A stretch of DNA of 64,000 nt, taken from the NCBI GenBank assembly GCA_026707815.1, contig JAPOWB010000009.1, forward strand, positions 6,752 to 70,751, written 5' to 3'. Below the pieces are notes generated by a model. The model saw only the letters and a list, made by a program, of their open reading frames with translations. It ran no database searches and was not told where the DNA came from. The translations under genes were made by a program, and so were the position numbers. Shown in pieces: positions 1,888 to 54,602 of this stretch. Position 1 is the stretch's first letter; the number at the start of each line of letters is the position of its first letter. The stretch comes from Candidatus Saccharimonadota bacterium. Lineage in GTDB: Bacteria; Patescibacteriota; Saccharimonadia; Saccharimonadales; VXPC01.

Positions 1888-4800
1888 ATGCCCTCCCAAA
1901 CTCTTGATGCTCTTAAACAAGTATCCAAGATTGTCAATATTGATAACAATAGAGTTAGTTTCGTTGATTCCAGAGACGAGGCTCTGATTGGTCACTTAAC
2001 CGATCATCAGAATCAATCTTGGCAAGAATTTGCTACAGAAGGTTTATCCAATTTATTCAGCAACTTCAATCCCTTAAAAGTTGAGATTAAAAAGCATGAT
2101 CAAAATTATGATTTGGAGCTAAATTTTAAAAGTCATCGCTTTGAAACTCCGACTATAACTGATAAAGAAGCTTTAATGAATAATGCGACATATGAATCAA
2201 CTTTGAAGGTCAATATTGAATTAATTAATAAGACTTTGGGCACTAAAAAAGTCCAAGAAATTTATTTTGGGGAATACCCTTGGATGACTGATAGGGGAAC
2301 TTTCATCATTAATGGCAAGGAAAGAGTTATTATTACTCAGATTATTAGAAGTTCGGGAGTCTTTTTTGAAGAGGTCGGAGTTAGCTTTGATCAACAAGCC
2401 GAAGAAATTACCCAACAAGTAGTCTTTGCTGCCAAGATCATTCCAGCCCCTGATCGAGGAACATGGCTTCGAATTGAAACTTCACCCAAAGACAATGTTA
2501 TCTACATTGTCATCAATCACAAATTTAAAACTCCAGTCACTAATTTTCTTCAAGCCATTGGCATGACTATTGATGAGATATATCGAGCTTTTGCCAATGT
2601 TGATACTGGTTCTGTTAAGTATATTTCTGAAACTTTCAAGCACAAGAATAGCATGCATGATTACAATAATGCTTTGATTGAAATTTACCGTTACATCAGA
2701 CCTGGGGATATTGCCAATTTAGAAAATGCCAAAGAAGCTTTGGAGAATAAGTTTTTTAATCAGCGTTATTATGATTTATCTAAAGTTGGGCGCTACAAAA
2801 TAAATCAACGTCTCGGATTAAAAACCCCCAATACCCCGACTAATCACGTTTTAAAGAAATCAGATTTCATCGCCATTATTTCAGAAGTTATTCGCATGAA
2901 TAACACGCCCGGATCCATTAATGATGATATTGATAATTTGGGTAATCGACGTCTAAGATTGGTCGGAGAATTAATCCAAAAACCTTTTCGGACTGGATTG
3001 GTCAGGCTGGAAAAAAATATCCGAGAACGAATGCTCAGACTAGATATTGACAGCATGACTCCTCAGCAATTAATTAATTCTCGACCAGTGGTAGCTGTCG
3101 TTAAAACATTTTTTGCCACTAATCAATTATCCCAATATATGGATCAAGCCAATCCTTTGTCAGAATTAGCAACTAAAAGACGGTTAAGTGCCATGGGTCA
3201 AGGAGGCTTGACTCGTGATTATGCCAAGTTTACTGTTCGAGATGCTCATCCGACTCATTATGGTCGAATTTGTCCAGTCGAAACTCCGGAGGGAGCCAAT
3301 ATAGGTCTAGTCATGTATATGGCACTTTATAGCCGAATCAATGAATATGGTTTTTTGGAAACTCCTTATTATCAAGTTTTAAATAAAGCTTTAGCTCAAG
3401 ATATGACTGGTCAAATTGCTGGGGCTGATTTAACTGATTTATCGGGCAAAGTTATTGTTGCTTCAGGTAACGTTGTAAGCCAAGCCCAGGCCCAAGCTTT
3501 GGCCAAGGTTGATCCTGATAAATATTGGCCAGTTAAACCTCGAGTTTTAAAAGATAAGATTGTTTATCTTGATGCCAATCAAGAAAATGCAGTTCTTTTA
3601 CTTAATGCTTCAGCTCAAACTGATGAGGATGGCTATTTCATTAACCCAGTCGAAGCAGGTAGATTAAACAATGTTGCCAATTATTACAATACTTCTGATG
3701 CTGAATACATGGACTTGTCAGCTCGGCAAATTTTAGGTTCTTCAGCTGGTTTAATTCCTTTTGTTGAAAAAGATAATTTAGTTCGCTCCCTAACCGGAGC
3801 TAATCAGACCCGTCAAGCTGTGCCTCTGATTCAGCCGAAACCTCCAGTAGTTGGCACGGGTTTAGAGAAAATTGTCACCAAGTACACCAATCAATTGGTG
3901 AGTGCTGAAGCTCCTGGCGAAGTTATTAAAGCTACTGCCGATGAAGTTGTGGTCAAATATGACAAAGTTAAGAAAACTTATCCAGTGACTCATTTTGAAA
4001 GAAGTAACAATGATACAGCCATCAACCAACATGTGGTTGTTTGTCGAGGTCAGAAGGTTGAAAAAGGTCAAGCCTTAATTGAAGGTATGTCAGTAGCTGA
4101 TGGAGAATTAGCCTTAGGTCGGGATGTTTTAGTAGCTTTAGCTTTTTGGGGTGGAGATAATTTTGAAGATGCTATTGTTATTTCTGAACGTTTAGTCCAA
4201 GAAGACGTTTTAACCAATATTAAGATTACTGAATACACAACTGAAGTCAGAGAAACTAAGCTTGGACCCGAAGTAACAACCCTAGATATACCCAATGTTT
4301 CTGAAGAGGCTCTGCGTAATTTAGATGAGACCGGCATCATTAGAGTTGGTGCTCGAGTCAAAGAAGGAGATATTTTAGTTGGTAAAATTACTCCCAAGGG
4401 AGAGCAAGAATTATCTTCGGAGGAAAGACTCCTAAGAGCTATTTTTGGCGAAAAAGCCAAAGATGTTAGAGATACTTCTCTTAAATTACCCAACGGTAAG
4501 ACTGGCAAAATTGTTGGAGTTAATGTTTTTTCTAGAGATCAAGGTCATGACCTCAAAGCCGGCATCTTAATGCAAGTTCAGGTTTTCGTGGCTCAGACTC
4601 GCAAGATTCAAGTTGGTGACAAATTAGCTGGTCGTCATGGCAATAAAGGGGTGATTGCTAAGGTTTTACCTGCTGAAGATATGCCTTTTACTGAAGAGGG
4701 TCAGCCAGTTGATCTAATCCTCAATCCCTTAGGAGTACCCAAGAGATTAAATGTCGGTCAGTTATTTGAAGCTACTTTGGGTATTGCTGCTCACAGGCTA

Positions 4801-13881: not shown

Positions 13882-15063
13882 ATGGCACAATTTGATAGGA
13901 ATAAACCTCACATTAATGTCGGAACTATGGGACATGTTGACCATGGTAAGACGAGCTTAACAGCAGCAATTACTTTAACTTTGTCTAAAAAACTGCCAAG
14001 TAATATTAATCAGCCTGTTAGCTATGATCAAATAGATAATGCTCCTGAAGAAAAGAAAAGAGGGATTACTATCGCTACTTCTCATCAGGAATATGAATCT
14101 GAAACTCGCCATTATGCTCATGTTGATATGCCTGGGCATGCCGATTATATTAAAAATATGATTACTGGAGCTGCTCAAATTGATGGAGCTATTTTAGTCG
14201 TCTCAGCTGCTGATGGTCCAATGCCTCAAACAAGAGAACATGTTTTGTTGGCCAAACAAGTTGGTGTACCATCTATTATTGTCTTTTTGAATAAAATGGA
14301 TTTGGCTGATCCTGAACTAGTGGAATTAGTTGAATCTGATATTCGTGATCTGTTGGCTAAATATGATTTTGACAAAGATTGTCCAATCATCAAAGGTTCT
14401 GCCACTAAGGCAATTGATGGTGATGAAGAGGCTATGCAAGCTATCATGGATTTAGTTAAATCTATGGATGAATATATTCCGGAGCCTGTTCGTGATCTGG
14501 ATAAGCCATTTTTGATGCCTGTCGAAGATGTTTTTTCTATAAAAGGTCGAGGCACTGTAGCCACTGGTCGAATTGAACAGGGTCAAATTAATTTGAATGA
14601 TGAAATTGAAATCGTTGGTATTAAAGCCACTAAAAAAACAGTTGTGACGGGTATTGAAATGTTTCAAAAGTCTTTAGATTCGGGTCAGGCTGGTGACAAT
14701 GCTGGTATCTTATTAAGAGGTATTGAGCGAGATCAGATTGAACGAGGACAAGTTTTATGTAAGCCAAGCTCTATTAAAGCCCATACTCGCTTTGAAGCCG
14801 AAGTCTATGTTCTAACCGATAAAGAAGGTGGACGTCACACACCATTTTTCAAAGGTTATAAGCCTCAATTTTATTTCAGAACTACCGATGTAACAGGAAC
14901 AGTTGAATTGCCAGCTGACAAAGAAATGGTTATGCCTGGAGATACAATTACTTTTAAGGTGACATTAGGACAACCAATTGCCATTGAAAAAGAAGTCCGC
15001 TTCGCTATTCGTGAAGGTGGTCGGACTGTTGGAGCTGGAGTCGTCACTCAAGTGATTGAGTAA
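13882..15063 (+). CDS. tuf: translation elongation factor Tu
   Basis: 393 aa with [15 protein letters not shown] and DMPGHADY. A purine-rich AAGGA lies a few nt upstream. Confidence 0.98.
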
Positions 15064-15332
15064 TCTTTTTGCTTGCAAAGATTCCAGAGATTCCGCTAAA
15101 ATCATAGCTTTTCATCTATAAAATAATTTCTTTTTGAGGATGAATCTGATAATATAAGAGTACTTCTTTTATAACAAGAGTTATTTAGATTCTAAATTTA
15201 GAGTTTTGTTTTTAAATTTAGAGAAGCAAATTAACCTAAGATATTAGTTTTTCTGATATTGGCGGTTGATTTTTGTATGCTTTAACCTCATAGAGAGAGA
15301 AGCCATTGAAAATCCATTAATGTATATATGTT

Positions 15333-20160: not shown

Positions 20161-20525
20161 TTCAACAAGAAAGTCGTCTGAAAATCTGTGATAATTCGGG
20201 AGCTAAAGAAATTCTCTGTATTCGAGTTTTGGGTGGCAGTCGACGACGCTATGCTAGAGTTGGTGATGTGATTGTCGGAAGTGTCAAACAGGCATCTCCA
20301 ACAGGTCAAGTTCCCAAAAAACAAGTTGTCCGAGCTGTCGTCGTTCGAACTAAAACCAAAATCAAGAGATCTGATGGTAGTACTTTAGCTTTCAGCGATA
20401 ATGCAGCTGTTATTATTAATGAGAAAAAAGAAATGCGAGGAACGAGAATTTTTGGACCAATTCCTCATGAACTCAGAACATTAGGGTATAATAAAATAGT
20501 TAGTTTAGCTTCCGAGGTATTATAG
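20157..20525 (+). CDS. rplN: 50S ribosomal protein L14
   Basis: Starts [18 protein letters not shown]. Confidence 0.96.
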
Positions 20526-20876
20526 ATGCAAGTTAAAGTTTTTAAAATTAAGCTCAAAAAAGGTGACTTAGTCCAAGTTATTAGGGGTAAATTGAAAGGT
20601 CAGACCGGTCGAGTTTTAAGTCTTCATCCTAAAACTAATCAAGTTACAGTCGATGGAGTCAATTTAGTGACTAAACACTTCAAGCCTAATAAACAATATC
20701 CTCAAGGAGCTATTGACACTATTTTGAAGCCCTTAAATATCAGTCAAGTGGCTATAGTTGAACCACAATCTCAAAAACCTTCACGAATTGGTTGGCAGAT
20801 TAAAACTGATGGCTCCAAAGAGAGAATTTATCAAAAAACTAAAAAGAAAGTTGTTATTCAACAGGGTAAGAAATAA
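20526..20876 (+). CDS. rplX: 50S ribosomal protein L24
   Basis: KOW motif KKGDLVQVIRGKLKGQTGRV. Confidence 0.88.
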   Translation: MQVKVFKIKLKKGDLVQVIRGKLKGQTGRVLSLHPKTNQVTVDGVNLVTKHFKPNKQYPQGAIDTILKPLNISQVAIVEPQSQKPSRIGWQIKTDGSKERIYQKTKKKVVIQQGKK

Positions 20877-41083: not shown

Positions 41084-41153
41084 AAAGATAAATAAAGTTC
41101 AAATTTATTTAAATTTTATGCTACTCTATAAAGTGACTCTCTAAATATTGGGT

Positions 41154-41372
41154 ATGGCAAAAAAAACTAAAAAGAAGGCTAAAAATCGACGTTCATTAGT
41201 TGCTTTAATCAGTGAGGCGACTGGTCATCGTTATATTATTCGCAAAAATAACCTGAATACGCCTGATAAATTAAAGAGACGAAAGTATGATCCCTTGATT
41301 CGCAAAACTGTCATGTATACTGAAGTTAATAAGAATCTTGGTCGCAACGAAGTTAAACCACGTAAAAAATAA
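41154..41372 (+). CDS. rpmG: 50S ribosomal protein L33 (Cys-less form, extended C-terminus)
   Basis: [44 protein letters not shown] matches the L33 pattern without the CxxC pairs. Confidence 0.8.
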
Positions 41373-41380
41373 ATCTCTCC

Positions 41381-41704
41381 ATGAATACTATTGCCAATAC
41401 TCAAAAAATTAGAATAAGGCTTAAGGCTTACGATTATAAAATTATTGATCAATCAGCCAAAAAGATTATTGATACAGCCTTAAGAGCTGGAGCTAAGGTA
41501 AATGGTCCAATTCCACTGCCAACCAAACGAACAACTTATACGGTGGTTAAGAGTCCTCATGTCTTTAAAAAGGGGCGGGAACAATTTGAAATGAGAATTC
41601 ATAAGCGTTTAATTGATATTTCCTCAATTACTTCTAAAACTATCGACAATCTGACTCATCTATCTTTACCAGCCGGTTGTGACATTGAGATAAAAATGTT
41701 TTGA
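41381..41704 (+). CDS. rpsJ: 30S ribosomal protein S10
   Basis: [43 protein letters not shown]...[23 protein letters not shown]. Confidence 0.95.
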
Positions 41705-41758: not shown

Positions 41759-41834
41759 AGGGGAGTAGCTCAGATGGCAGAGCATTGGTCTCCAAAACCA
41801 AAGGTCGCAGGTTCGATCCCTGTCTCCCCTGCCA
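41759..41834 (+). tRNA. tRNA-Trp (anticodon CCA), CCA end encoded
   Basis: Acceptor AGGGGAG/CTCCCCT, anticodon stem TTGGT/ACCAA with loop CTCCAAA, T-arm GCAGG-TTCGATC-CCTGT. Confidence 0.93.
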
Positions 41835-42027
41835 GATCAAATGTTTCCTCGAATTTCGGCAAAAAGATTAGGTTTACATCTGTAAAAATTGACGCGCCAG
41901 GGGTTGCACCGACCAGCTGGAGTAAGTCGGCAACTTATCGAAAATGGTTTGCAAGACTGAGCCTTTGAATGCTACCCGTTAGATTTTAGCAGACTCTGTT
42001 ACTATTATCCATGACGCAACTACCTCG

Positions 42028-42081
42028 AATTGCGACATTAAGTGCTACAATCTATTTATAATTGCGACATTAAGTGCTACA
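42028..42081 (+). repeat. two perfect 22-bp direct repeats (aattgcgacattaagtgctaca), 32-bp period
   Basis: Copies at 42028-42049 and 42060-42081, read directly, ending 11 nt before the ATG at 42093. Confidence 0.9.
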
Positions 42082-42092
42082 CTTGTGATATT

Positions 42093-43694
42093 ATGGACAA
42101 TCCCCAGATAAATATACTCATCAAATATTTGCTCCAATCAGATCAGGCTGTAAAAGATCTAGCTGTTTATACCGATTACAAGCGGCGTATTTGGGATTCT
42201 GTCAATCAATATGTACAACGTTTTTTGTCACATCGAACTAACCAATGGATTATCATTCCAGGCCTACGGGGGGTAGGTAAAACCACATTGTTAGCCCAGC
42301 TCTATAATCACCTATCCTTGGTGGGAAATAAAACTAGCAGATTTTATTTCTCTTTGGAGCAATTATCCTTAATAGGCGCGTCTATCAATGATCTCGTGGA
42401 AGCTTTTAAGTTTTTGCGTCAGGAGCATCCCGAGCGGATGTTTTTTATCTTCCTAGATGAGGTGCACTCTGACCCCCAGTGGTCTTTGGGTTGCAAAATT
42501 ATTTTTGATCAAATACCGAATTCTTTTCTTGTCTGCACGGGTTCCTCGGCTTTAAGTTTGCGTTTAAACCCGGACAGCGCCAGGAGGGCTCGTCTTATCA
42601 AAATGTATCCCCTGAGCCTTGCAGAATTCGTAGCCATCAGACAAAGTCAAGGGGATGTAAGTCAGGCGCATCTTCCAGCAAGCAACCTAAGTCACAAGTT
42701 GCGTACCGCTTTATTTGAATCACGCACAATTATAGAAGTCTACGAAGGATTACTAAGCTGTCGTAAATTCGTAGACCACTACTACAATAGCCTTGGTCAA
42801 ACGGGGTTCTTGGGCAAAATGACTGCTGATGAATCAGCTTCTTCTCAGTTAATCGAAGAATATATCAACGGCTATGGAACTCTGCCGTTTTTCAGCCTTC
42901 CAAAGTATGTAAACCAACAAATAGGGCTGCTACCTACGGGAACAAGCGGTCGGACTGATGAACACGATAAAGGGGAGATTCGGGAAGTGATTTTGCAAAC
43001 CGTGGAACAAACATTAACAGGGGATACCTTGAAACTGTTAGCTGGGCAAAGCAGTGACGCTAGGGTGAATTTCCAGCTTCAAGCTTCAACGATCAATCTC
43101 TTGCCTAAGTTAATTCGCATCTTGGCAAACAGTGAGCGCATTAGCTTAAGGACGATCGCCACAAAATTGGAGGACACCCACCAAAAAACTTTGGGTGTAA
43201 TGCTCAAGGTTCTAATTATGAGCGACCTGATCTCGGAAGTATCGCCCCTCGGATCCCATCTAGGTCGGAGTACCAAAACTCCTAAATATCTCTTTGGCGC
43301 ACCAGCGCTTAGGCAAGCATTAGTACCCCTTAATTCGTCAAAAGGAATTAGCGCAACCAATCATCAAAGCGGGCAATTGAGGGGTAGATTGTTAGAAGAC
43401 ACCGTCGTTATGTACTTGGAGCGTATTTTTGGCAAACTTTCCGAAAAAAGAATCATCGAGTACGATTCTCGGTCCGGCGGTGCAGATTTTGTTGTTACAC
43501 CTCCGGCCACAAATCGGGATCAGATAGTGGTCGAAGTGGGTTATGGAAAGAAAACATCTGTCCAAGCCAAACAAACCCTGCAAAACGTTAATGGCTTATA
43601 TGGCCTAGTAATCACATCATCGGTAACTAGGCCGGAAATTGATACGAATAATAACTCTGTATATGCACCTTTATCGTATTTCTTGCTTACTTGA
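42093..43694 (+). CDS. P-loop ATPase (AAA_14-like) with C-terminal DUF4143 / PD-(D/E)xK-like module (COG1373 type)
   Basis: Walker A GLRGVGKTTLL and Walker B FIFLDEVH. The C-terminus GGADFVV...IVVEVGYGKK resembles a restriction-endonuclease-fold motif. Confidence 0.82.
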   Translation: MDNPQINILIKYLLQSDQAVKDLAVYTDYKRRIWDSVNQYVQRFLSHRTNQWIIIPGLRGVGKTTLLAQLYNHLSLVGNKTSRFYFSLEQLSLIGASINDLVEAFKFLRQEHPERMFFIFLDEVHSDPQWSLGCKIIFDQIPNSFLVCTGSSALSLRLNPDSARRARLIKMYPLSLAEFVAIRQSQGDVSQAHLPASNLSHKLRTALFESRTIIEVYEGLLSCRKFVDHYYNSLGQTGFLGKMTADESASSQLIEEYINGYGTLPFFSLPKYVNQQIGLLPTGTSGRTDEHDKGEIREVILQTVEQTLTGDTLKLLAGQSSDARVNFQLQASTINLLPKLIRILANSERISLRTIATKLEDTHQKTLGVMLKVLIMSDLISEVSPLGSHLGRSTKTPKYLFGAPALRQALVPLNSSKGISATNHQSGQLRGRLLEDTVVMYLERIFGKLSEKRIIEYDSRSGGADFVVTPPATNRDQIVVEVGYGKKTSVQAKQTLQNVNGLYGLVITSSVTRPEIDTNNNSVYAPLSYFLLT

Positions 43695-43797
43695 CACTCC
43701 GGTCATAAAATCTCCAGCCCTGACATTTGGGGCAATGCGCATATGTAAGAATTCCGGAATCGTCCCTTAACGCCTGCCAGAACGCTAAGAAGTCCGA

Positions 43798-44802
43798 CTA
43801 GCCCAGTTTGTTCTTGATTTCCGCTAGGGTGAAACGTTGGTTCTGCAACTGGCGTATCCGCTTGGCGCGCTTGACTGCCGAGGGGGCGTAGAGGCGGTAT
43901 TTGGACGGCAGCATATCGGCTGGCGGCAGTAAGCCTTGGTCGGTCCAATACCTCAGGGTTGAAACCGGCTCTTCACTGAGACGGGCTAGTTCGCCGATTT
44001 TCAAGAGCTTGGCTTCGGCCGGGGCAGGGGAGTCCGGTTGCAAATGCGAGTCCAGCGAGCGCTCAATAGCTCGCAGGATAAAGATATGGAAGGACTCCGT
44101 TGCACCTTTTGTCTGAATGTTTTCCAAAAGCCGCAAATAGGTCAGGCGATCTTCTTTGCGGATGACTGCCGGCGGCCAGCCGTCCTGCAAAAGCAACAAA
44201 TTCATCAGCAGTCGGGCAGTCGGGCCGTTGCCGTCGACAAAAGGGTGGATACTGACGAGCTGCAGATGTGCTTGGGAAGCCTTGAGGCAAATATGTGCTT
44301 TGCTGCTTCCGATTTCTTCGACCATCTCGTCCAGCATGGACGAAACGCGACGCCAGTTCGGAAAGACGGTTGCCGATCCGGCCACTCTGACAGGCATGCG
44401 ACGCAGGCGACCGGCGTTCGTGCTATCAATCTTGTCTAAAACTAGGTGGTGAATTGCCAGAATAAGCTTGGCATCCACGTCCTGGGTTGTGGTCTTATTG
44501 GCGAATTGCCAAATATAATCAACCGCTTGGGCATGATTAACGGCTTCTAGGTGTTCAGTCAGGCTTTTGCCGGCGACTGAGAGATTCTTGCCGACGATCA
44601 AGGCCGTCTGTCGGCGATCCAAAGTATTGCCCTCTAGGGCATTGCTAGTATAGGTAAGCTCAACCTTGTACCATTCTTGCAAATTGACCAGCTGCTCCTT
44701 GGGTGCAGACAACTGCTGCAACCGCTTCTTCTTGCTGTCCAGCCTTTTCAGAATATCATCCATAACTATGGTACTCTCAAGTATCACTTTAGAGTTTACC
44801 AA
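43798..44802 (-). CDS. Fic-domain protein fused to a C-terminal MerR-type HTH
   Basis: Fic motif HPFVDGNGPTARLL and upstream inhibitory-helix motif TSNALEGN. The C-terminus LKIGELARLSEEPVSTLRYWTDQGLL is MerR-like. The gene is visibly GC-rich. Confidence 0.85.
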   Translation of the reverse strand: MVNSKVILESTIVMDDILKRLDSKKKRLQQLSAPKEQLVNLQEWYKVELTYTSNALEGNTLDRRQTALIVGKNLSVAGKSLTEHLEAVNHAQAVDYIWQFANKTTTQDVDAKLILAIHHLVLDKIDSTNAGRLRRMPVRVAGSATVFPNWRRVSSMLDEMVEEIGSSKAHICLKASQAHLQLVSIHPFVDGNGPTARLLMNLLLLQDGWPPAVIRKEDRLTYLRLLENIQTKGATESFHIFILRAIERSLDSHLQPDSPAPAEAKLLKIGELARLSEEPVSTLRYWTDQGLLPPADMLPSKYRLYAPSAVKRAKRIRQLQNQRFTLAEIKNKLG

Positions 44803-44880
44803 ATAGGCTCCAGTGTGTCAAGACCTATGCCAGAATGTATCTCGCAGGAAATTGCCCCTCTGTTTTGCAAGGGGGAAAGG

Positions 44881-44910
44881 ATAATCTATTATAATCTAAT
44901 ATAATCTAAT
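44881..44910 (+). repeat. three tandem 10-bp units (ataatctatt ataatctaat ataatctaat)
   Basis: Read directly. The array ends 5 nt before the ATG at 44916 and lies in the divergent Fic-Fic intergenic region. Each junction creates a TATAAT. Confidence 0.85.
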
Positions 44911-44915
44911 ATATA

Positions 44916-45995
44916 ATGAGTGATAGATTCTTAAATTTTAATTTTATCATGGATTATGACAAATTACTTGAATCCCTGCCAACCAGTTTAATAGGCGCAA
45001 TCGCCCGGATTGACGAATTGAAGGGTAGGTGGATCGGTGGATGCGACTTAAGTCCGCGGACTGTCGAGAATCTGCGACGTTCAACTCTGATAACTTCCGC
45101 TGGAGCGTCGACGCGTATTGAAGGATCAAAAATGACCGATAAAGACATTGAGGATTACTTGTCGGGACTGAAGATTCAAAAGTTCGCCGAGCGAGACCGT
45201 CAAGAGGTGAGTGGCTATCATGAAACCTTGGAGCTAATCTTTAATCAATACCAAGAACTGGCTTGGACAGAAAACAATATCAAATACCTACACACCCGAC
45301 TGCTACAGTACTCAGCTAAAAATGAAAATCATCGTGGCAATTATAAAACGATAGACAATCGCATCGAAGCAGTTGATGCGAACGGCAAATTGATTTCGGT
45401 CATTTTTGAAACTACTCCAGTTTATTTAGTTGGCAAGGAGATGTCGGAATTGATTGACTGGTCGCAATCGGCTGAGCGGCATCACCCTCTGCTAGTTTTA
45501 TCCGTCTTTACCATCAGTTTTTTGAAAATTCATCCCTTTTTGGACGGAAACGGTCGGCTATCGCGACTTTTGACCAACCAGTGGCTGCTAAGACATGGCT
45601 ACGACTACACTCCATTTGTTTCTCACGAGAAGCTGATTGAAGATTCCAAAGCTGACTATTACCGAACGCTCAGAGACAGTCAAATAACTTTCGGTCGAGC
45701 TGATGAATCAGTTGGCGCTTGGACTGAATATTTTCTCAGAATTTTGTTGTTCCAAGCTCAAAAAGCTGTTGATCTGCTTGATGTCACCAGAATTGAGGAC
45801 GAGCTATCGCCTAAGCAATTGGCTATCTGGCAGTATTTGAGCCGAGTTGATCAAGCGACTCCTGGGCAAATCAGCAAGGAAATTCAGGTCGCTCGCATGA
45901 CGGTCAGCCAAGCCTTGACCAAGTTGCTTGGCTTGGGTCTAATTGTCCGTCTCGGTCAAGGACGAACAACTTCTTACCGCCGAAGGGTTAGATAA
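44916..45995 (+). CDS. Fic-domain protein fused to a C-terminal winged-helix (MarR-like) domain
   Basis: Fic motif HPFLDGNGRLSRLL and inhibitory-helix motif STRIEGS. C-terminus is QISKEIQVARMTVSQALTKLLGLGLIVRLGQGRTTSY. An alternative start exists at 44949. Confidence 0.85.
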   Translation: MSDRFLNFNFIMDYDKLLESLPTSLIGAIARIDELKGRWIGGCDLSPRTVENLRRSTLITSAGASTRIEGSKMTDKDIEDYLSGLKIQKFAERDRQEVSGYHETLELIFNQYQELAWTENNIKYLHTRLLQYSAKNENHRGNYKTIDNRIEAVDANGKLISVIFETTPVYLVGKEMSELIDWSQSAERHHPLLVLSVFTISFLKIHPFLDGNGRLSRLLTNQWLLRHGYDYTPFVSHEKLIEDSKADYYRTLRDSQITFGRADESVGAWTEYFLRILLFQAQKAVDLLDVTRIEDELSPKQLAIWQYLSRVDQATPGQISKEIQVARMTVSQALTKLLGLGLIVRLGQGRTTSYRRRVR

Positions 45996-46518
45996 AAGCA
46001 GAACTCTAGCCTAGGTGATAAATGAATTGTAAATAACTTTATGGTAAATTTGGCTTAGATCCTCATAAGAGAGAGTCCGCTCATTATATAGATCCAAGCA
46101 CAACAAAGAGAGTCGGTGACGATTGCAATTCTGAATGATCTGCACATTGCCTTCGAACTAGAATATCATTGCTTGCAAGAATTATTATCGTGGGATAGAT
46201 ATTTTGTATCTAAATGCTATTGTAAGGTTTTTAGATTATATTAATTTTAAATTATAGACAACAGAGTTTTTTGATGGATATCTACTACTAATGAAAATCA
46301 GGGTGATTAACATTGCAAAAGGTACATTGATTCCAATTCAATTGAACTTTGACATATCAATATTTAATAGCCTTTTAGATATTAATAATCAATGATGCTA
46401 GTCTTTTCGAGTAAGGGTTATGATAAGCTATAGGTTAGTTAATCTTGATAATAAATAATATTAAAAGCCAGTTATGAAGCAACGGTCAACAATAATAATT
46501 ATTTCGATAGTCGGAGGG

Positions 46519-46974
46519 TTAGCCCTTGTTAACTAACTGGCGATAAAGTCTACTCGCTTGTTTGTTTATGTCGCTACTAAAATGATGGTAATCAGCAGAC
46601 TTAATCAACTCACCAGTTTTAAATCTATAGATAGATAGCAATCGGCTAAATGCTTCTCTAAATTCTTTGCCATGTTCGTCTTTAAGCTCAACAACACTCT
46701 GTGCTAATTTATGGATTATAATCTCTCTTTGTTTTTTAATATTTAATTTAGCTAATGTAGTGCTTAATTTTATATATACTTGGGGATATGCTGGGTTATA
46801 CCCACCATCCTTCATGCCCTTATACCACTTAAAGCTACGCCCTAAAGCAGTAGCATCATAAGATACGCCCCAAGTTATAGGCATATCACCTAACTCGGCT
46901 TTTAAAAGAGCCTCTATTCTACTGGCTTCAGCTAGTAGCTTATCAATCTGTTTCTGTTTAACTCTTTTAGCCAT
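46519..46974 (-). CDS. hypothetical protein, possibly a degenerate SprT-like fold (HKLAQ in place of HExxH)
   Basis: 151-aa ORF. The pattern W-G-x-S...LGR...I-K-L-S...IIHKLAQ...H resembles SprT/DUF45 topology without the catalytic Glu. Confidence 0.5.
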   Translation of the reverse strand: MAKRVKQKQIDKLLAEASRIEALLKAELGDMPITWGVSYDATALGRSFKWYKGMKDGGYNPAYPQVYIKLSTTLAKLNIKKQREIIIHKLAQSVVELKDEHGKEFREAFSRLLSIYRFKTGELIKSADYHHFSSDINKQASRLYRQLVNKG

Positions 46975-47082: not shown

Positions 47083-48024
47083 TTATGGGGTAAAAATCAA
47101 ATTACCATCTGCATCATAGCGTTCAGTAGCAGTCAAAATACCATCAGCACTATAGTATTCTGCTTTAATCAAATTACCATCAGCATTGTATTCATACTGA
47201 ACATACCCCTGTGAATTACCATCTGCATAATATTCTTCGTATTTAATCACATTACCATCTGCATCATACCATTCAGCACCAATCAACCTATCATTAGCAT
47301 TATAGCGTTCTCTTTTAATCCTATTACCATCAGCATTGTATTCAGACTTATTATATCCCCTTAAATTACCATCAGCACCATAGTCTTCCCTTTTAATCAC
47401 ATTACCATCAGCATCACAAATATATTTTCTAGTATCTGTATCTTTGGGACATTCTGTTTTATCTTTGGGGGCATCAACTGGAGCTTTATCAACTGGCTTT
47501 ACTTCATCTTTTACTTCATCATCACCAATCTCATTACCATCTGCATCATAAAGTTCTGTCTTAATCTGATTACCATCAGCGTCATAGCGTTCTGTCTTAA
47601 TCTGATTACCATCAGCATCATATTCATATTTGATATACCCCCCTAAATTACTATCGGCATCATAGTATTCTCTTTTAATTAAATTACCATCAGCACCATA
47701 GTATTCTCTTTTAATTAAATTACCATCAGCGTCATATTCATATAGGCGATAACTTGTTAAACTACCACCTGCATTATAGTCCTCTCTTTTAATCTCATTA
47801 CCATCAGCGTCATATTTAAACTTGGTATATCCTTCTGAATTGCCATCAGCATCATGCCATTCAGCTTTAATCAAATTACCATCTGCATCACAAATATATT
47901 TGTTGGTATCTGTATCTTTAGGGCATTCAGCTACCTCTTTACTAGTCAAAGCATGGATGGTTATACCTATCCCAAGCAGTAAGACAATGATACTGGTAAG
48001 AATAATGATTAGCTTTTTATTCAT
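47083..48024 (-). CDS. small membrane-anchored YD-repeat (Rhs-like) protein with internal two-fold duplication
   Basis: 313 aa. N-terminal TM helix, then about 20 copies of Y-[DG]-A-D-G-N-x-I-K-x-E. ECPKDTDT[NR]KYICDADGN occurs twice. Confidence 0.8.
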   Translation of the reverse strand: MNKKLIIILTSIIVLLLGIGITIHALTSKEVAECPKDTDTNKYICDADGNLIKAEWHDADGNSEGYTKFKYDADGNEIKREDYNAGGSLTSYRLYEYDADGNLIKREYYGADGNLIKREYYDADSNLGGYIKYEYDADGNQIKTERYDADGNQIKTELYDADGNEIGDDEVKDEVKPVDKAPVDAPKDKTECPKDTDTRKYICDADGNVIKREDYGADGNLRGYNKSEYNADGNRIKRERYNANDRLIGAEWYDADGNVIKYEEYYADGNSQGYVQYEYNADGNLIKAEYYSADGILTATERYDADGNLIFTP

Positions 48025-49965: not shown

Positions 49966-50487
49966 TTATGGCATATCATTCCCGAAAAATTCGGATTCAT
50001 AATCACCAAAGCCCTGTGGTGGACATATGCCGTCGCAATCATCCATGTCATAGTTTTCCATGGGAATATCCCAGATGTCATCCATATCACCCCAAGGGGT
50101 ATCTATAATTGGATTCACTTCAGAGCTGAGCATCATGCCTAGAAAGAGCATTAGGCTAGCAAGGTCGTCAGAATTCGCATTCTGATTATCAAGTTGCGAT
50201 GAATTTTCAAGTTGGTTGCGAATTTCTAAAATTTCATCCATCAACTCCGCCAATTGCTCAGCTGTTTGCTCTTGCATCACCGCTTGCTCAACCAGAGCTT
50301 CAGCGACATTGCTATTGCTATCCACTCTCTCTGCTCCAAGTATCAACCACAGAGCAGACTGAGCAATCAACCCTAGCGACAGTATGATTACCATTACGGA
50401 CGGGATGACATCCACGGGGGAAGTCTTGTTGCTAGACTCCATTATTTTCTCCTTTATATGATGAGGGTAGGAAGAGATTTTGTGCAA
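49966..50487 (-). CDS. hypothetical single-TM protein with highly acidic C-terminal half
   Basis: 173-aa ORF; the likely true start is MESSNK at 50442. TM helix VIPSVMVIILSLGLIAQSALWLIL, with a D/E-rich tail containing DDCDGICPP. Confidence 0.5.
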   Translation of the reverse strand: MHKISSYPHHIKEKIMESSNKTSPVDVIPSVMVIILSLGLIAQSALWLILGAERVDSNSNVAEALVEQAVMQEQTAEQLAELMDEILEIRNQLENSSQLDNQNANSDDLASLMLFLGMMLSSEVNPIIDTPWGDMDDIWDIPMENYDMDDCDGICPPQGFGDYESEFFGNDMP

Positions 50488-51098
50488 AATCCCCAGTTCA
50501 CCAGTCTAAACAGTGAACCGTTAAGATTTAAAATGTTAAGATACTCAAAGTTATTGAAACTCTCTTTTTATAAATTATATAATATTTATAACATTTATCA
50601 ATGGAGCCAAGCAACTAAGCTAGTCCATTAAATTTTAACTTTTCACAATGCTAAGTGGTTGCAAATATTAAGATCAATCAGGAAATCAAGAAAGTCGCTT
50701 AAATATTAGCCAATGGTTTAGTCTTAACTCTCAGCAATCTTATCAATGCCCAATTAAAGCAATTGCTTGATCCGTCGCACTAGTCTTAGATACTCCTTTG
50801 CCTTAATCAGTCTATCAATCCCAAGCTGGAAGCGGAATTTAGATCAGGTTTACAAAGAGATTGAACAGAGAAACATCAGTCAGCTCTACACCAACATTAT
50901 TGGAATATGAATGTAGTAAGTGACATCAGAGCGATTTTTGAATATCTAGATGGGTATACAAAATCTTATTCTTGGTAATTGGCTTACATGTTCATCTTTA
51001 TTAAAACATTTCAATCAATACATCATCTCTGAGATTTATTAGAATTAATCGCAAAATAAGCAATAGAGCGATAGTTTTAAAAAATTTTAAAAAAATTC

Positions 51099-54176: not shown

Positions 54177-54602
54177 ATGCCCCAAACTAAAGGACGTCGA
54201 CGGAATTTAAAGACCGTCCGAGAAGTCGCCGAAAATAAACGTCAATCCAGCCAAAAACCAGCTTGGTTTAAAAGATTGTTGAAAGGATTTTTTAGCCCCT
54301 TGCTTAAATTATTGACTTGGTTAAATCAGCCTTTAGCTACCCATCAACAAGTTGCAAGCAGCAACTGGACTACAGCTTGGACTAAACAAAGATCAATGAT
54401 GCCTAAATATTTCAGACAATCATTTGCTGAAATTAAATTAGTCACTTGGCCGACATTTCCAGTTGCTATGAGATTAACTTTTGCAGTCGTCATTTTCACT
54501 TGTATCTTTGCCGGACTGATAGCTGGACTAGATTGGGTCTTGTCTAAAATTTTTGAAGAAATTATTATTAATGAAGGTCAAAATCTAAAGAATTTATTTT
54601 AA
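54177..54602 (+). CDS. secE: preprotein translocase subunit SecE with ~80-aa basic N-terminal extension
   Basis: C-terminal FAEIKLVTWPT... followed by a single TM helix. Located directly upstream of nusG. Confidence 0.8.
   Translation: MPQTKGRRRNLKTVREVAENKRQSSQKPAWFKRLLKGFFSPLLKLLTWLNQPLATHQQVASSNWTTAWTKQRSMMPKYFRQSFAEIKLVTWPTFPVAMRLTFAVVIFTCIFAGLIAGLDWVLSKIFEEIIINEGQNLKNLF

Follow-up and report, generated by a model that had tools for sequence, protein, structure and literature searches.

The 64-kb stretch analysed here (the window), taken from contig JAPOWB010000009.1 of a Candidatus Saccharimonadota bacterium, holds directly downstream of its tRNA-Trp gene a region of unusual composition with three genes and several short junction repeats (positions 41835-46150, hereafter the cassette region). 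The first gene encodes an AAA+ ATPase with a C-terminal DUF4143 domain; the second, read from the other strand, a Fic protein fused to a MerR-type helix-turn-helix (HTH); and the third a Fic protein with a winged HTH (wHTH). These genes are named ATPase, Fic-MerR and Fic-wHTH below. Pfam searches confirmed this gene content, which a first-pass annotation of the same DNA had described as a P-loop ATPase with a nuclease-like tail and two Fic genes, and they likewise confirmed its positions for L33, S10, SecE and NusG, including secE at 54177. The ATPase is flanked on one side by a leader sequence that begins right after the tRNA and on the other by a repeat of about 75 nucleotides (nt), named R, whose end copies the end of the tRNA. 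In NCBI, identical proteins are listed under 'Candidatus Saccharibacteria bacterium'. The window was compared with contigs of related strains (L001-L010), among which L001, an ENA metagenome scaffold of the window strain, is identical to the window, and with contigs of relatives (L091-L100 and L130-L132). The sample labels ROBB21 and SHAF22 presumably belong to sponge-microbiome studies.

Table 1 Features of the cassette region and its surroundings, in window coordinates (aa, amino acids; GC3, G+C at third codon positions; TA, toxin-antitoxin)
Feature	Position	Strand	Evidence or remark
rpmG (ribosomal protein L33), upstream host gene	41148-41372	+	Pfam Ribosomal_L33 1.2e-10; GC3 0.28
rpsJ (ribosomal protein S10)	41381-41704	+	Pfam Ribosomal_S10 4.7e-35
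tRNA-Trp(CCA)	41759-41834	+	ARAGORN; Rfam 69.2 bits; 100% identical in all strains
Proximal junction core, last 9 nt of tRNA-Trp, CCCCTGCCA	41826-41834	+	
Leader half of the junction repeat (GATCAAATGTTTCCTCGAATTTCGGCAAAAAGATTAGGTTTACATCTGTAAAAATTGAC), ~75 nt	41835-41896	+	
Two perfect 22-nt direct repeats, AATTGCGACATTAAGTGCTACA	42028-42049, 42060-42081	+	12-65 nt upstream of the ATPase start
AAA+ ATPase, 533 aa from the likely ATG, AAA_14 and C-terminal DUF4143	42093-43694	+	Pfam
R repeat with terminal CCTGCCA (43773-43779), closing the ATPase cassette on the right	43701-43781	+	
Fic-MerR fusion, 321 aa, FICD-like class II Fic with C-terminal MerR HTH	43798-44763	-	Pfam Fic 1.2e-19, MerR_1 1.7e-16
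Tentative third junction: degenerate core CCTATGCCA (44824-44832), leader remnant, hairpin CCCCTCTGTTTTGCAAGGGGG (44855-44875)	44824-44876	+	read by eye
Fic-wHTH, 359 aa, SoFic-like architecture, canonical motif HPFLDGNGRLSR	44916-45995	+	Pfam Fic 1.3e-13 and weak MarR/ArsR HTH
Right boundary, tail of declining G+C	45996-46150	.	G+C 0.43 to 0.30
Pseudogenised RelB-like antitoxin and YafQ-like toxin (TA pseudogene)	50655-51023	+	in-frame stops, frame changes

The cassette region contains 45.6% G+C against 35.3% in the rest of the window. Other 4.3-kb segments average 35.5% (standard deviation 1.6, maximum 38.7), which places the cassette region at z = 6.2 and bears out the earlier claim that G+C rises directly after the tRNA-Trp 3' end; the hand counts given for that claim, 35 of 60 bases at 44161-44220 and 16 of 60 at 20521-20580, were reproduced exactly. 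At 200-nt resolution, the rise starts at 41800-41999 (0.465), already inside tRNA-Trp, the maximum of 0.575 lies at 43800-44099, and the value has fallen to 0.30 by 46100-46299. In tetranucleotide usage, the DNA at 42-46 kb stands 0.40-0.47 apart from the remainder of the window over a background of 0.17-0.30, and a second bump at 46-49 kb is due to an internally repetitive RHS gene. The excess of G+C is concentrated at third codon positions: GC3 is 0.43 in the ATPase, 0.64 in Fic-MerR and 0.45 in Fic-wHTH, and 0.21-0.31 in 14 of the 15 other genes scored between 39.9 and 56.7 kb, the exception being a 173-aa open reading frame (ORF) at 49966-50487 (0.47). The sliding-window G+C, tetranucleotide and codon-usage checks that had been suggested thus all give an atypical profile over the cassette region. 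The stacked shadow ORFs described at 43079-44904 are present too, because high G+C gives fewer stop codons. The left edge of the foreign DNA is 41835, the first base past an intact tRNA-Trp. The right boundary is soft, since the homology of the Fic-wHTH gene to its relatives ends at the stop codon (45995) and the tail beyond it contains neither homology to relatives nor a credible small ORF.

Thirteen contigs encode an identical S10, and ten of them were examined (L001-L010). All seven that reach past tRNA-Trp (L001-L007, from at least six samples, among them SAMEA7723696 and SAMN13943205) hold the three cassette genes at the same site; the other three (L008-L010, two of them from Logan) end within ~500 bases after tRNA-Trp and have the same tRNA-leader junction. 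Between strain groups, identity amounts to 96.6-99.4% in the cassette genes and to 98.4-99.2% in the left flank. The flank-like divergence, together with the presence in all seven strains, means that the cassette region predates the split of the sampled strains. The 'recent acquisition' read from the sequence at first does not hold at strain level and stands on a deep time-scale only.

The closest homologs of the three cassette proteins are 74-89% identical and lie on other contigs, several of them 0.4-1.0 Mb long, as complete genomes of bacteria of the Candidate Phyla Radiation (CPR) usually are. The search for a donor lineage that had been recommended led to these contigs, which are Saccharibacteria-like and contain 43-52% G+C against 35% in the host. 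One of them, L095 (52% G+C), shares the L33-S10 neighbourhood with the window and carries Fic-MerR 1.5 kb downstream of its own tRNA-Trp, in the same orientation and with 86.6% nucleotide identity. At four-fold degenerate third positions, the S10 and L33 genes of the window and L095 are identical at fractions of 0.23 and 0.36 (saturated), against 0.72 for Fic-MerR; the ATPase reaches 0.61-0.64 with L098 and L091, and Fic-wHTH 0.62 with L100. The ancestors that the cassette genes have in common with genes of other lineages are therefore far younger than those of the core genomes. Based on composition including tetranucleotides, codon usage as measured by GC3, and this discordance at synonymous sites, the foreign origin proposed in the first-pass annotation is borne out; horizontal transfer into the host lineage is strongly supported and is the only reading that fits.

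The three genes probably did not travel as the single island that had been assumed. Relatives of each lie apart from the others or in other orders. L095 has tRNA-Trp, a TA module and Fic-MerR; L098 has tRNA-Trp, Fic-MerR, the ATPase, a TA pair and Fic-wHTH, with Fic-MerR ending six bases past the tRNA. In L100, Fic-wHTH (82.5% nucleotide identity to the window copy) stands beside genes for an OLD-family ATPase and UvrD helicase (Gabija-like) and SocA-domain genes, and in L094 it adjoins a type III restriction-modification (RM) system. In L092, S10 and L3 enclose the ATPase homolog together with a DpnII RM system, and in L093 the homolog stands beside RloB/AAA_21 and type III RM genes. The gene content past tRNA-Trp differs among L095, L098 and the window, i.e. 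the distribution is patchy. Since GC3 differs among the three genes, their nearest relatives sit on different contigs and the orders vary, the cassette region consists of at least three modules.

The junctions between these modules were traced with the repeats. A model of R (consensus ...TCTCCAGCTTCGACATTTGGGGCAGTGCGCATCTGTAAAAGTTCGCTGGCCGTCCACTANCCCCTGCCA) built from 17 copies in other genomes matches 43708-43781 at E = 6.7e-18 and nothing else significantly in the 64 kb. A model of the leader, built from six foreign copies, matches 41821-41893 at E = 1.7e-20 as its sole match in the window, and the two matches flank the ATPase. The CCTGCCA at the end of R is a copy of the last 7 nt of tRNA-Trp and bounds the ATPase module: L091 and L098 match the complete module with its ends (41849-43782) at 80% identity, and beyond 43782 neither they nor L099 show homology any longer. 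At this short length, the tRNA 3' end does have a direct repeat in the window, contrary to the earlier statement. The aligner search proposed along with that statement, for the last 15-25 nt of tRNA-Trp, would have missed this copy; scans of the window for 17- and 25-nt copies with up to three mismatches return only the tRNA itself, and a local-alignment scan with the 3' 36 nt returns other tRNAs and chance matches.

R recurs in the relatives, with nine copies in 21.6 kb of L131, five in 21.6 kb of L091, two in 7.2 kb of L098 and one in 21.6 kb of L130; the L131 and L091 contigs come from the records ERZ25074053 and ERZ25069191. Most of these copies share 9 nt with the tRNA-Trp end, compared with 7 nt for the window copy. 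Within every locus, the copies point the same way regardless of gene strand (9/9 in L131, 5/5 in L091). The genes between them include YafQ/HigB/RelB TA pairs, a NYN protein, a 5'-3' exonuclease, a pentapeptide protein, the ATPase and a GSDH-domain protein, as well as many genes of unknown function. In L091, L098 and L131, the leader follows directly after R or another GCCA-ended site, and positions 4133-4252 of L098 consist of R plus leader, the joint expected of a circularised window ATPase cassette. Insertions and deletions respect the same borders. L002 and L003 contain an additional 3.66 kb between the ATPase and Fic-MerR, at 43773-43779. This module, which consists of a 119-aa ORF and the gene of a UvrD-like helicase that has GajB-like matches, is flanked by CCTGCCA and has a right junction (GTCTTCCCCTGCCA) that equals the tRNA end at 13 of 14 positions. 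Furthermore, a 6.4-kb block separates two R copies in L131 where L091 has one R, and a TA cassette with its own GCCA-ended site is 95% identical between L095 and L098, although its neighbours differ. The tentative third junction lies where the homology of Fic-MerR to L095 ends (44825) and that of Fic-wHTH to L098, L100 and L094 begins (44877-44883), and it resembles L098 around ~4040-4085.

Several properties of the repeats themselves were also examined. A MAFFT alignment suggested that R is a degraded near-full-length tRNA-Trp. With the last nine bases fixed, shuffled sequences often scored as high (p = 0.02-1), so only the terminal 7-9 nt of R can be called tRNA-derived, and that idea was dropped. 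The consensus of R folds at -4.8 kcal/mol without statistical or covariation support, and fold tests rejected R as an attC-type hairpin or a terminator. No known RNA family (Rfam) was found in the leader or the cassette region. Xer-dependent integrative elements (IMEX) have at their junctions a dif-like site of 28 bp with XerC and XerD arms, and they integrate at the chromosomal dif. A block of R (GTGCGCAT) looks to us like a XerC arm, a likeness that we offer as a lead only; by eye, no XerD-like arm is present in R, and the cumulative GC skew shows no reversal at 41.8 kb. The leader differs between strains. Its first ~50 nt after the tRNA (41835-41880) are far more diverged between the window and L004-L007 and L009 than the surroundings (97-100% identical), and the leader region overall is 88% identical between two strain haplotypes whose tRNA-Trp is identical, which suggests a recombination junction or a replaced leader. 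In L131, a tRNA-Trp-like gene in an array (15012-15090) has the anticodon UCA (ARAGORN 'SeC') and a 2-nt insertion in the acceptor stem, and a copy of the leader follows it; the product of this gene may read UGA, or the gene may be a pseudo-tRNA that serves as an attachment site.

Taken together, we regard the cassette region as probably a small array of mostly single-gene cassettes built by recombination at the tRNA-Trp 3' end. Our confidence in this mechanism is moderate, because the data come from metagenome assemblies of five lineages and no recombinase was found in the arrays. Read outward, the array would comprise tRNA-Trp, the leader, the AAA_14/DUF4143 ATPase, R, the inverted Fic-MerR and Fic-wHTH, with a decayed TA cassette further out. 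The cassettes, whose horizontal transfer is documented above, would derive from the related, G+C-richer (43-52%) Saccharibacteria-like lineages. Breakpoints were observed at a short core, (C)CCTGCCA, which forms the 3' end of both tRNA-Trp and R, and the cassettes would have been joined there. A circularised cassette would carry R and leader as its joint, predicted to read ...CCCTTAACGCCTGCCA followed directly by GATCAAATGTTTCC. Insertion of the ATPase circle at a tRNA-Trp end that stands next to Fic-MerR, as it does in L098, would produce the window arrangement base for base. The empty site is predicted as ...GTCTCCCCTGCCA followed directly by GAACGCTAAGAAGTCC, i.e. a tRNA ending in CCTGCCA joined to GAACGCTAAG. 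The recombinase would not be encoded by the array: it would act in trans, or host recombination would do the exchange. As a lead only, a trans-acting enzyme might belong to the Xer family. The TA pseudogene is 40-48% identical to the TA proteins of L098 and L131 (tblastn) and 68% to L095 and L098 by blastn, and intact homologs lie at 6065-6632 in L098 and 6399-6952 in L131. It is AT-rich and 9 kb from tRNA-Trp, and the G+C-rich cassettes adjoin the tRNA; this fits a remnant of an older cassette in an array that gains new modules next to the tRNA and degrades at its far end.

The nearest competitor of this array reading is that DNA was taken up and exchanged by the homologous recombination of the host, with tRNA-Trp, leader and R as homology arms and R as a dispersed repeat for RecA shuffling. 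We consider it unlikely. Over ~75 nt, the copies of R and leader agree at 75-90% of positions, and the identity of tRNA-Trp across lineages is 86-91%; this would suffice for homology-facilitated recombination, and exchange between R copies would yield indels bounded by two R copies. What speaks against it is the constancy of the junction, which always follows ...GCCA, whether the joined parts are tRNA and leader, R and leader, R' and leader, or R and unrelated DNA, even where only 7 nt are shared, as in the window. Dispersed repeats alone would not enforce the co-orientation seen in L131 and L091 either. The constant junction after GCCA, with 7 nt shared at the right junction of the window, and the strict co-orientation are the reasons why a site-specific reaction is favoured; they do not prove it. 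A number of results weigh against the array reading, and some suit the homologous alternative. Pfam detected no integrase, resolvase or transposase domain in 29 window ORFs (every ORF of at least 100 aa from 39.9 to 56.8 kb plus ten others), in agreement with the first-pass annotation, and no recombinase in the arrays of the relatives, where rescanning ten unknown ORFs at E <= 0.1 was equally negative and the only related match was a transposase-type HTH fragment in L091. RecA recombination, too, is able to create exact indels between repeats of 75 nt. The window itself has a single R, and the junction between Fic-MerR and Fic-wHTH is degenerate and lacks statistical support. R is not significantly tRNA-like outside its last 7-9 nt, and neither R nor R plus leader folds significantly on either strand (z-scores +0.3 to +1.3). 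R is known from five lineages, all of them metagenome assemblies and some at 2-5x coverage, and is absent from L092 and L132, both of which have ATPase homologs. Finally, exact-pattern scans for R and leader found nothing in IMG/VR; in JGI metagenomes a strict R pattern found nothing, and the 29 loci of a loose pattern were all chance matches on re-scoring with the model.

A one-event genomic island or prophage remnant targeted to the tRNA, whose integrase and most of whose att repeat have since decayed, would also explain the position at the tRNA 3' end, the foreign composition, the lack of mobility genes and the same three genes in all strains. It is rather improbable in our view: such an island should not show GC3 values as different as those of the three genes, nor closest relatives on different contigs (L098/L091, L095 and L100) that are reordered or alone there. 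In addition, R with its CCTGCCA divides the ATPase from Fic-MerR internally, Fic-MerR abuts the tRNA in L098 with no ATPase between, and the genes are intact, so that the integrase alone would have to have been lost selectively. Least credible of all, and in our judgement hardly worth entertaining, is native DNA of functionally unusual composition or a chimera of assembly or binning. Metagenome-assembled genomes can indeed be chimeric, and amino-acid content or expression can raise G+C. However, the same junctions occur in seven independent ENA/NCBI assemblies (L001-L007), and L008-L010 confirm the tRNA-leader junction; an assembly artefact is excluded by this number of independent assemblies with identical junctions. 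A native origin conflicts with the concentration of the G+C excess at third codon positions and with a synonymous divergence discordant with that of the core genes.

The array was next set against known systems. Like a classical tRNA island, it is inserted at an intact tRNA 3' end and has atypical composition and a patchy distribution. The distal repeat, usually 15-50 nt in such islands, measures 7 nt in the window, whereas most R copies of the relatives share 9 nt with the tRNA, and the integrase of such islands was found neither in the 29 window ORFs nor in the relatives' arrays. Tycheposons of Prochlorococcus are tRNA-targeted integrative islands in streamlined genomes; what defines them is a lineage-specific, site-specific integrase carried by the element, together with hallmark replication or mobility genes (bioRxiv 10.1101/2020.12.28.424599). 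The window array is like them in its insertion on the 3' side of a tRNA, the copies of the tRNA end between modules, the degraded distal remnants, newer arrivals that would push older ones outward, a putative defence cargo and a small host genome. It differs from them in that their integrase and hallmark replication and mobility genes were not detected here, in the length of the tRNA match (7-9 nt, against attachment repeats that are ~40-nt partial tRNAs), and in having single-gene modules divided by a conserved 75-nt repeat that is not a tRNA. Integron arrays and CALINs (clusters of attC sites without an integrase) consist of small cassettes between co-oriented repeats of 60-140 nt that are alike within an array, as in the Vibrio VCRs, and they carry TA and unknown cargo in shuffled order with newer modules proximal. 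Co-oriented repeats between small cassettes whose content and order vary between genomes are found here as well. In contrast to integrons, no intI is present among the 29 window ORFs, the array starts at a tRNA gene instead of attI, and R has no attC hairpin potential and, by eye, no GTTRRRY core, the core being CCTGCCA. The genes lie on both strands here, and each cassette seems to bring along, upstream of its gene, a leader and an operator of its own. The array thus resembles both tycheposons and integron arrays and has the defining features of neither. For Saccharibacteria and Patescibacteria, a literature search turned up no relevant report of integrons, attC sites or tRNA islands. We tentatively raise the possibility, for which the odds at present are less than even, that the window represents the minimal form, with three cassettes and one R, of an undescribed cassette-exchange system of Saccharibacteria that is integron-like and unrelated to integrons. 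Such a system would be anchored at tRNA-Trp, use unstructured ~75-nt R sites ending in CCTGCCA and depend on a recombinase encoded elsewhere or unrecognised, and its cassettes might be single- or few-gene units with defence, toxin-antitoxin or metabolic functions.

The cargo is most likely of defence or toxin type, comprising two putatively autoinhibited Fic AMP-transferases with DNA-binding tails and an ATP-driven protein of nuclease type. This assignment rests on homology and on the gene neighbourhoods of the relatives: the cassette proteins match PADLOC SoFic, PDC-S04 and PDC-S01 models, and the relatives of the genes lie among RM, OLD-family ATPase/UvrD-helicase (Gabija-like), SocA-domain, RloB and TA genes. 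The Fic domain of Fic-MerR aligns with FICD in the PDB at 4.8e-31 over 234 residues. It shares with FICD/HYPE this domain and the SxxxEG inhibitory motif, and has a MerR-type HTH in place of the tetratricopeptide-repeat (TPR)/transmembrane region. The inhibitory motif (S/T)xxxE(G/N) is N-terminal in both proteins, as SNALEG in Fic-MerR and STRIEG in Fic-wHTH, and is present in 117/120 Fic-MerR homologs and 119/120 Fic-wHTH homologs. The catalytic motif HxFx(D/E)GNGRxxR is present in Fic-wHTH (HPFLDGNGRLSR) and not in the Fic-MerR of the window strain, where HPFVDGNGPTAR has a Pro in place of the first motif Arg at residue 180 (GNGPTAR). The Arg is kept (GNGRTAR) in six other strains and in 118/120 homologs, and the R-to-P change is private to the protein cluster of the window strain. 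Because of this change, catalysis by Fic-MerR may be impaired in the window strain, perhaps through inactivation of the toxin domain.

Fic-wHTH matches the PADLOC SoFic model at 4.6e-40, covering 29-349 of 361 positions, and a solved Fido protein (PDB 8uqu) at 4.5e-26 near full length. It has the same domain order and length as SoFic, HxFxDGNGRxxR and an N-terminal SxxxEG. Its similarity to solved SoFic chains spans only ~65 residues, and its score against the NCBIfam SoFic equivalog, 39.6 bits with a cut-off of 550, is far below that threshold. SoFic is reported to act by AMPylation-mediated abortive infection and in E. coli has a small downstream antitoxin, AS1 (PMC12249575), and EF-Tu has been reported as its target (bioRxiv 10.64898/2026.07.09.737422). 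No credible small antitoxin ORF was found downstream of Fic-wHTH. Judged from its sequence, Fic-wHTH may work like SoFic and is at most a candidate ortholog. Genes of both Fic families are accessory and widespread; their homologs with about 50% identity number in the thousands, and the named organisms among the best 120 homologs of each are all Patescibacteria, apart from a few unclassified ones. Obligate pairing of the two Fic genes, or of a Fic gene with the ATPase, was rejected, as each gene is found without the others in relatives.

The ATPase scores 3.2e-24 (85.8 bits) for AAA_14 and 1.9e-06 for DUF4143, whose 28.1 bits are exactly its cut-off. With both Pfam domains at or above gathering scores, intact Walker A and B motifs and conserved C-terminal acidic and Lys residues, it has the features of COG1373; Walker A (GLRGVGKTT), Walker B (DE122-123) and D465/E481/K486 are conserved in 111 homologs. 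DUF4143 has been classed in the PD-(D/E)XK superfamily, with function unknown (PMC3424549). PADLOC PDC-S01 matches the ATPase over the AAA part only, ~150 of 375-450 profile positions. Compared with COG1373/PDC-S01 proteins, it has the same two Pfam domains and relatives placed among RM and other defence genes, and is ~100 residues longer than typical members. There is no NCBIfam match, no sequence relative in the PDB, and no viral relative by profile search. A confident AlphaFold2 model was obtained with a predicted local distance difference test (pLDDT) score of 85.5; as a clue to function, the fold search with this model was uninformative, returning just generic AAA+, Orc1/Cdc6 and STAND ATPases at template-modelling (TM) scores of 0.2-0.38. 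The 22-nt repeats upstream of the gene are kept in all strains, L098 has two palindromic copies (TGTAGCACTTAATGCTACA), and they look like a candidate operator.

Beyond the cassette region, the first-pass annotation held the cassette responsible for separating rpmG and tRNA-Trp from secE-nusG. Of the 12.3 kb from tRNA-Trp to secE, the cassette region takes up 4.3 kb, and the remaining 8 kb are mostly host-like in composition. In L095, the one relative with the same L33-S10 and tRNA-Trp neighbourhood, tblastn with the window SecE found no secE homolog in the 10.5 kb downstream of tRNA-Trp; it is therefore not the cassette that separates them. The 8 kb encode a 151-aa protein (46519-46974), the RHS-repeat protein, GMP reductase, a Pif1-type helicase, a kinase-like P-loop protein and a YgjP peptidase. 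At 46474-46536, the first 17 codons are left of a 368-aa ORF that has no Pfam or PADLOC match; the ORF is intact in L004 and L006, starts and is then cut by the contig end in L005 and L007, and has been removed from the window strain by a 1.33-kb deletion in this region with a 5-bp overlap at the junction. The RHS/YD-repeat protein (47083-48024, minus strand, 313 aa) has five diverged 210-nt repeats in its gene and a signal-anchor-like N-terminus, and is shorter (161 aa) in L002 and L003. The 173-aa acidic ORF named above for its GC3 (minus strand) has no Pfam match, lies near the TA pseudogene and may be another imported gene. SecE (54177-54602, 141 aa) and L1 (55602-56723, 373 aa) have long Lys-rich N-terminal extensions compared with typical bacterial versions.

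The S10 gene has been relocated in the window: rplC (15333) comes straight after tuf (13882-15063), and the sole S10 gene stands after rpmG and before tRNA-Trp. The L33-S10 adjacency is common to L095. A scan of genome contigs with S10 found it in other Saccharibacteria in the usual operon with no tRNA nearby, and in those loci neither L33 nor a tRNA stands beside it. L092 has kept tuf-S10 and holds a 9-kb defence island, which includes its ATPase homolog, between S10 and L3.

In Saccharibacteria and other CPR bacteria, which live attached to host cells, genomes are tiny, recognised mobile elements are few, and both gene exchange and phage defence are poorly known. If the array reading is wrong, the locus would be an ordinary decayed island with defence-type cargo beside a tRNA gene. 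If the repeat-bounded cassettes are true units of exchange, they would offer a defined junction sequence for searches of raw reads, a defined site for a recombinase hunt, and a testable route by which genes could pass between Saccharibacteria lineages that differ greatly in base composition.

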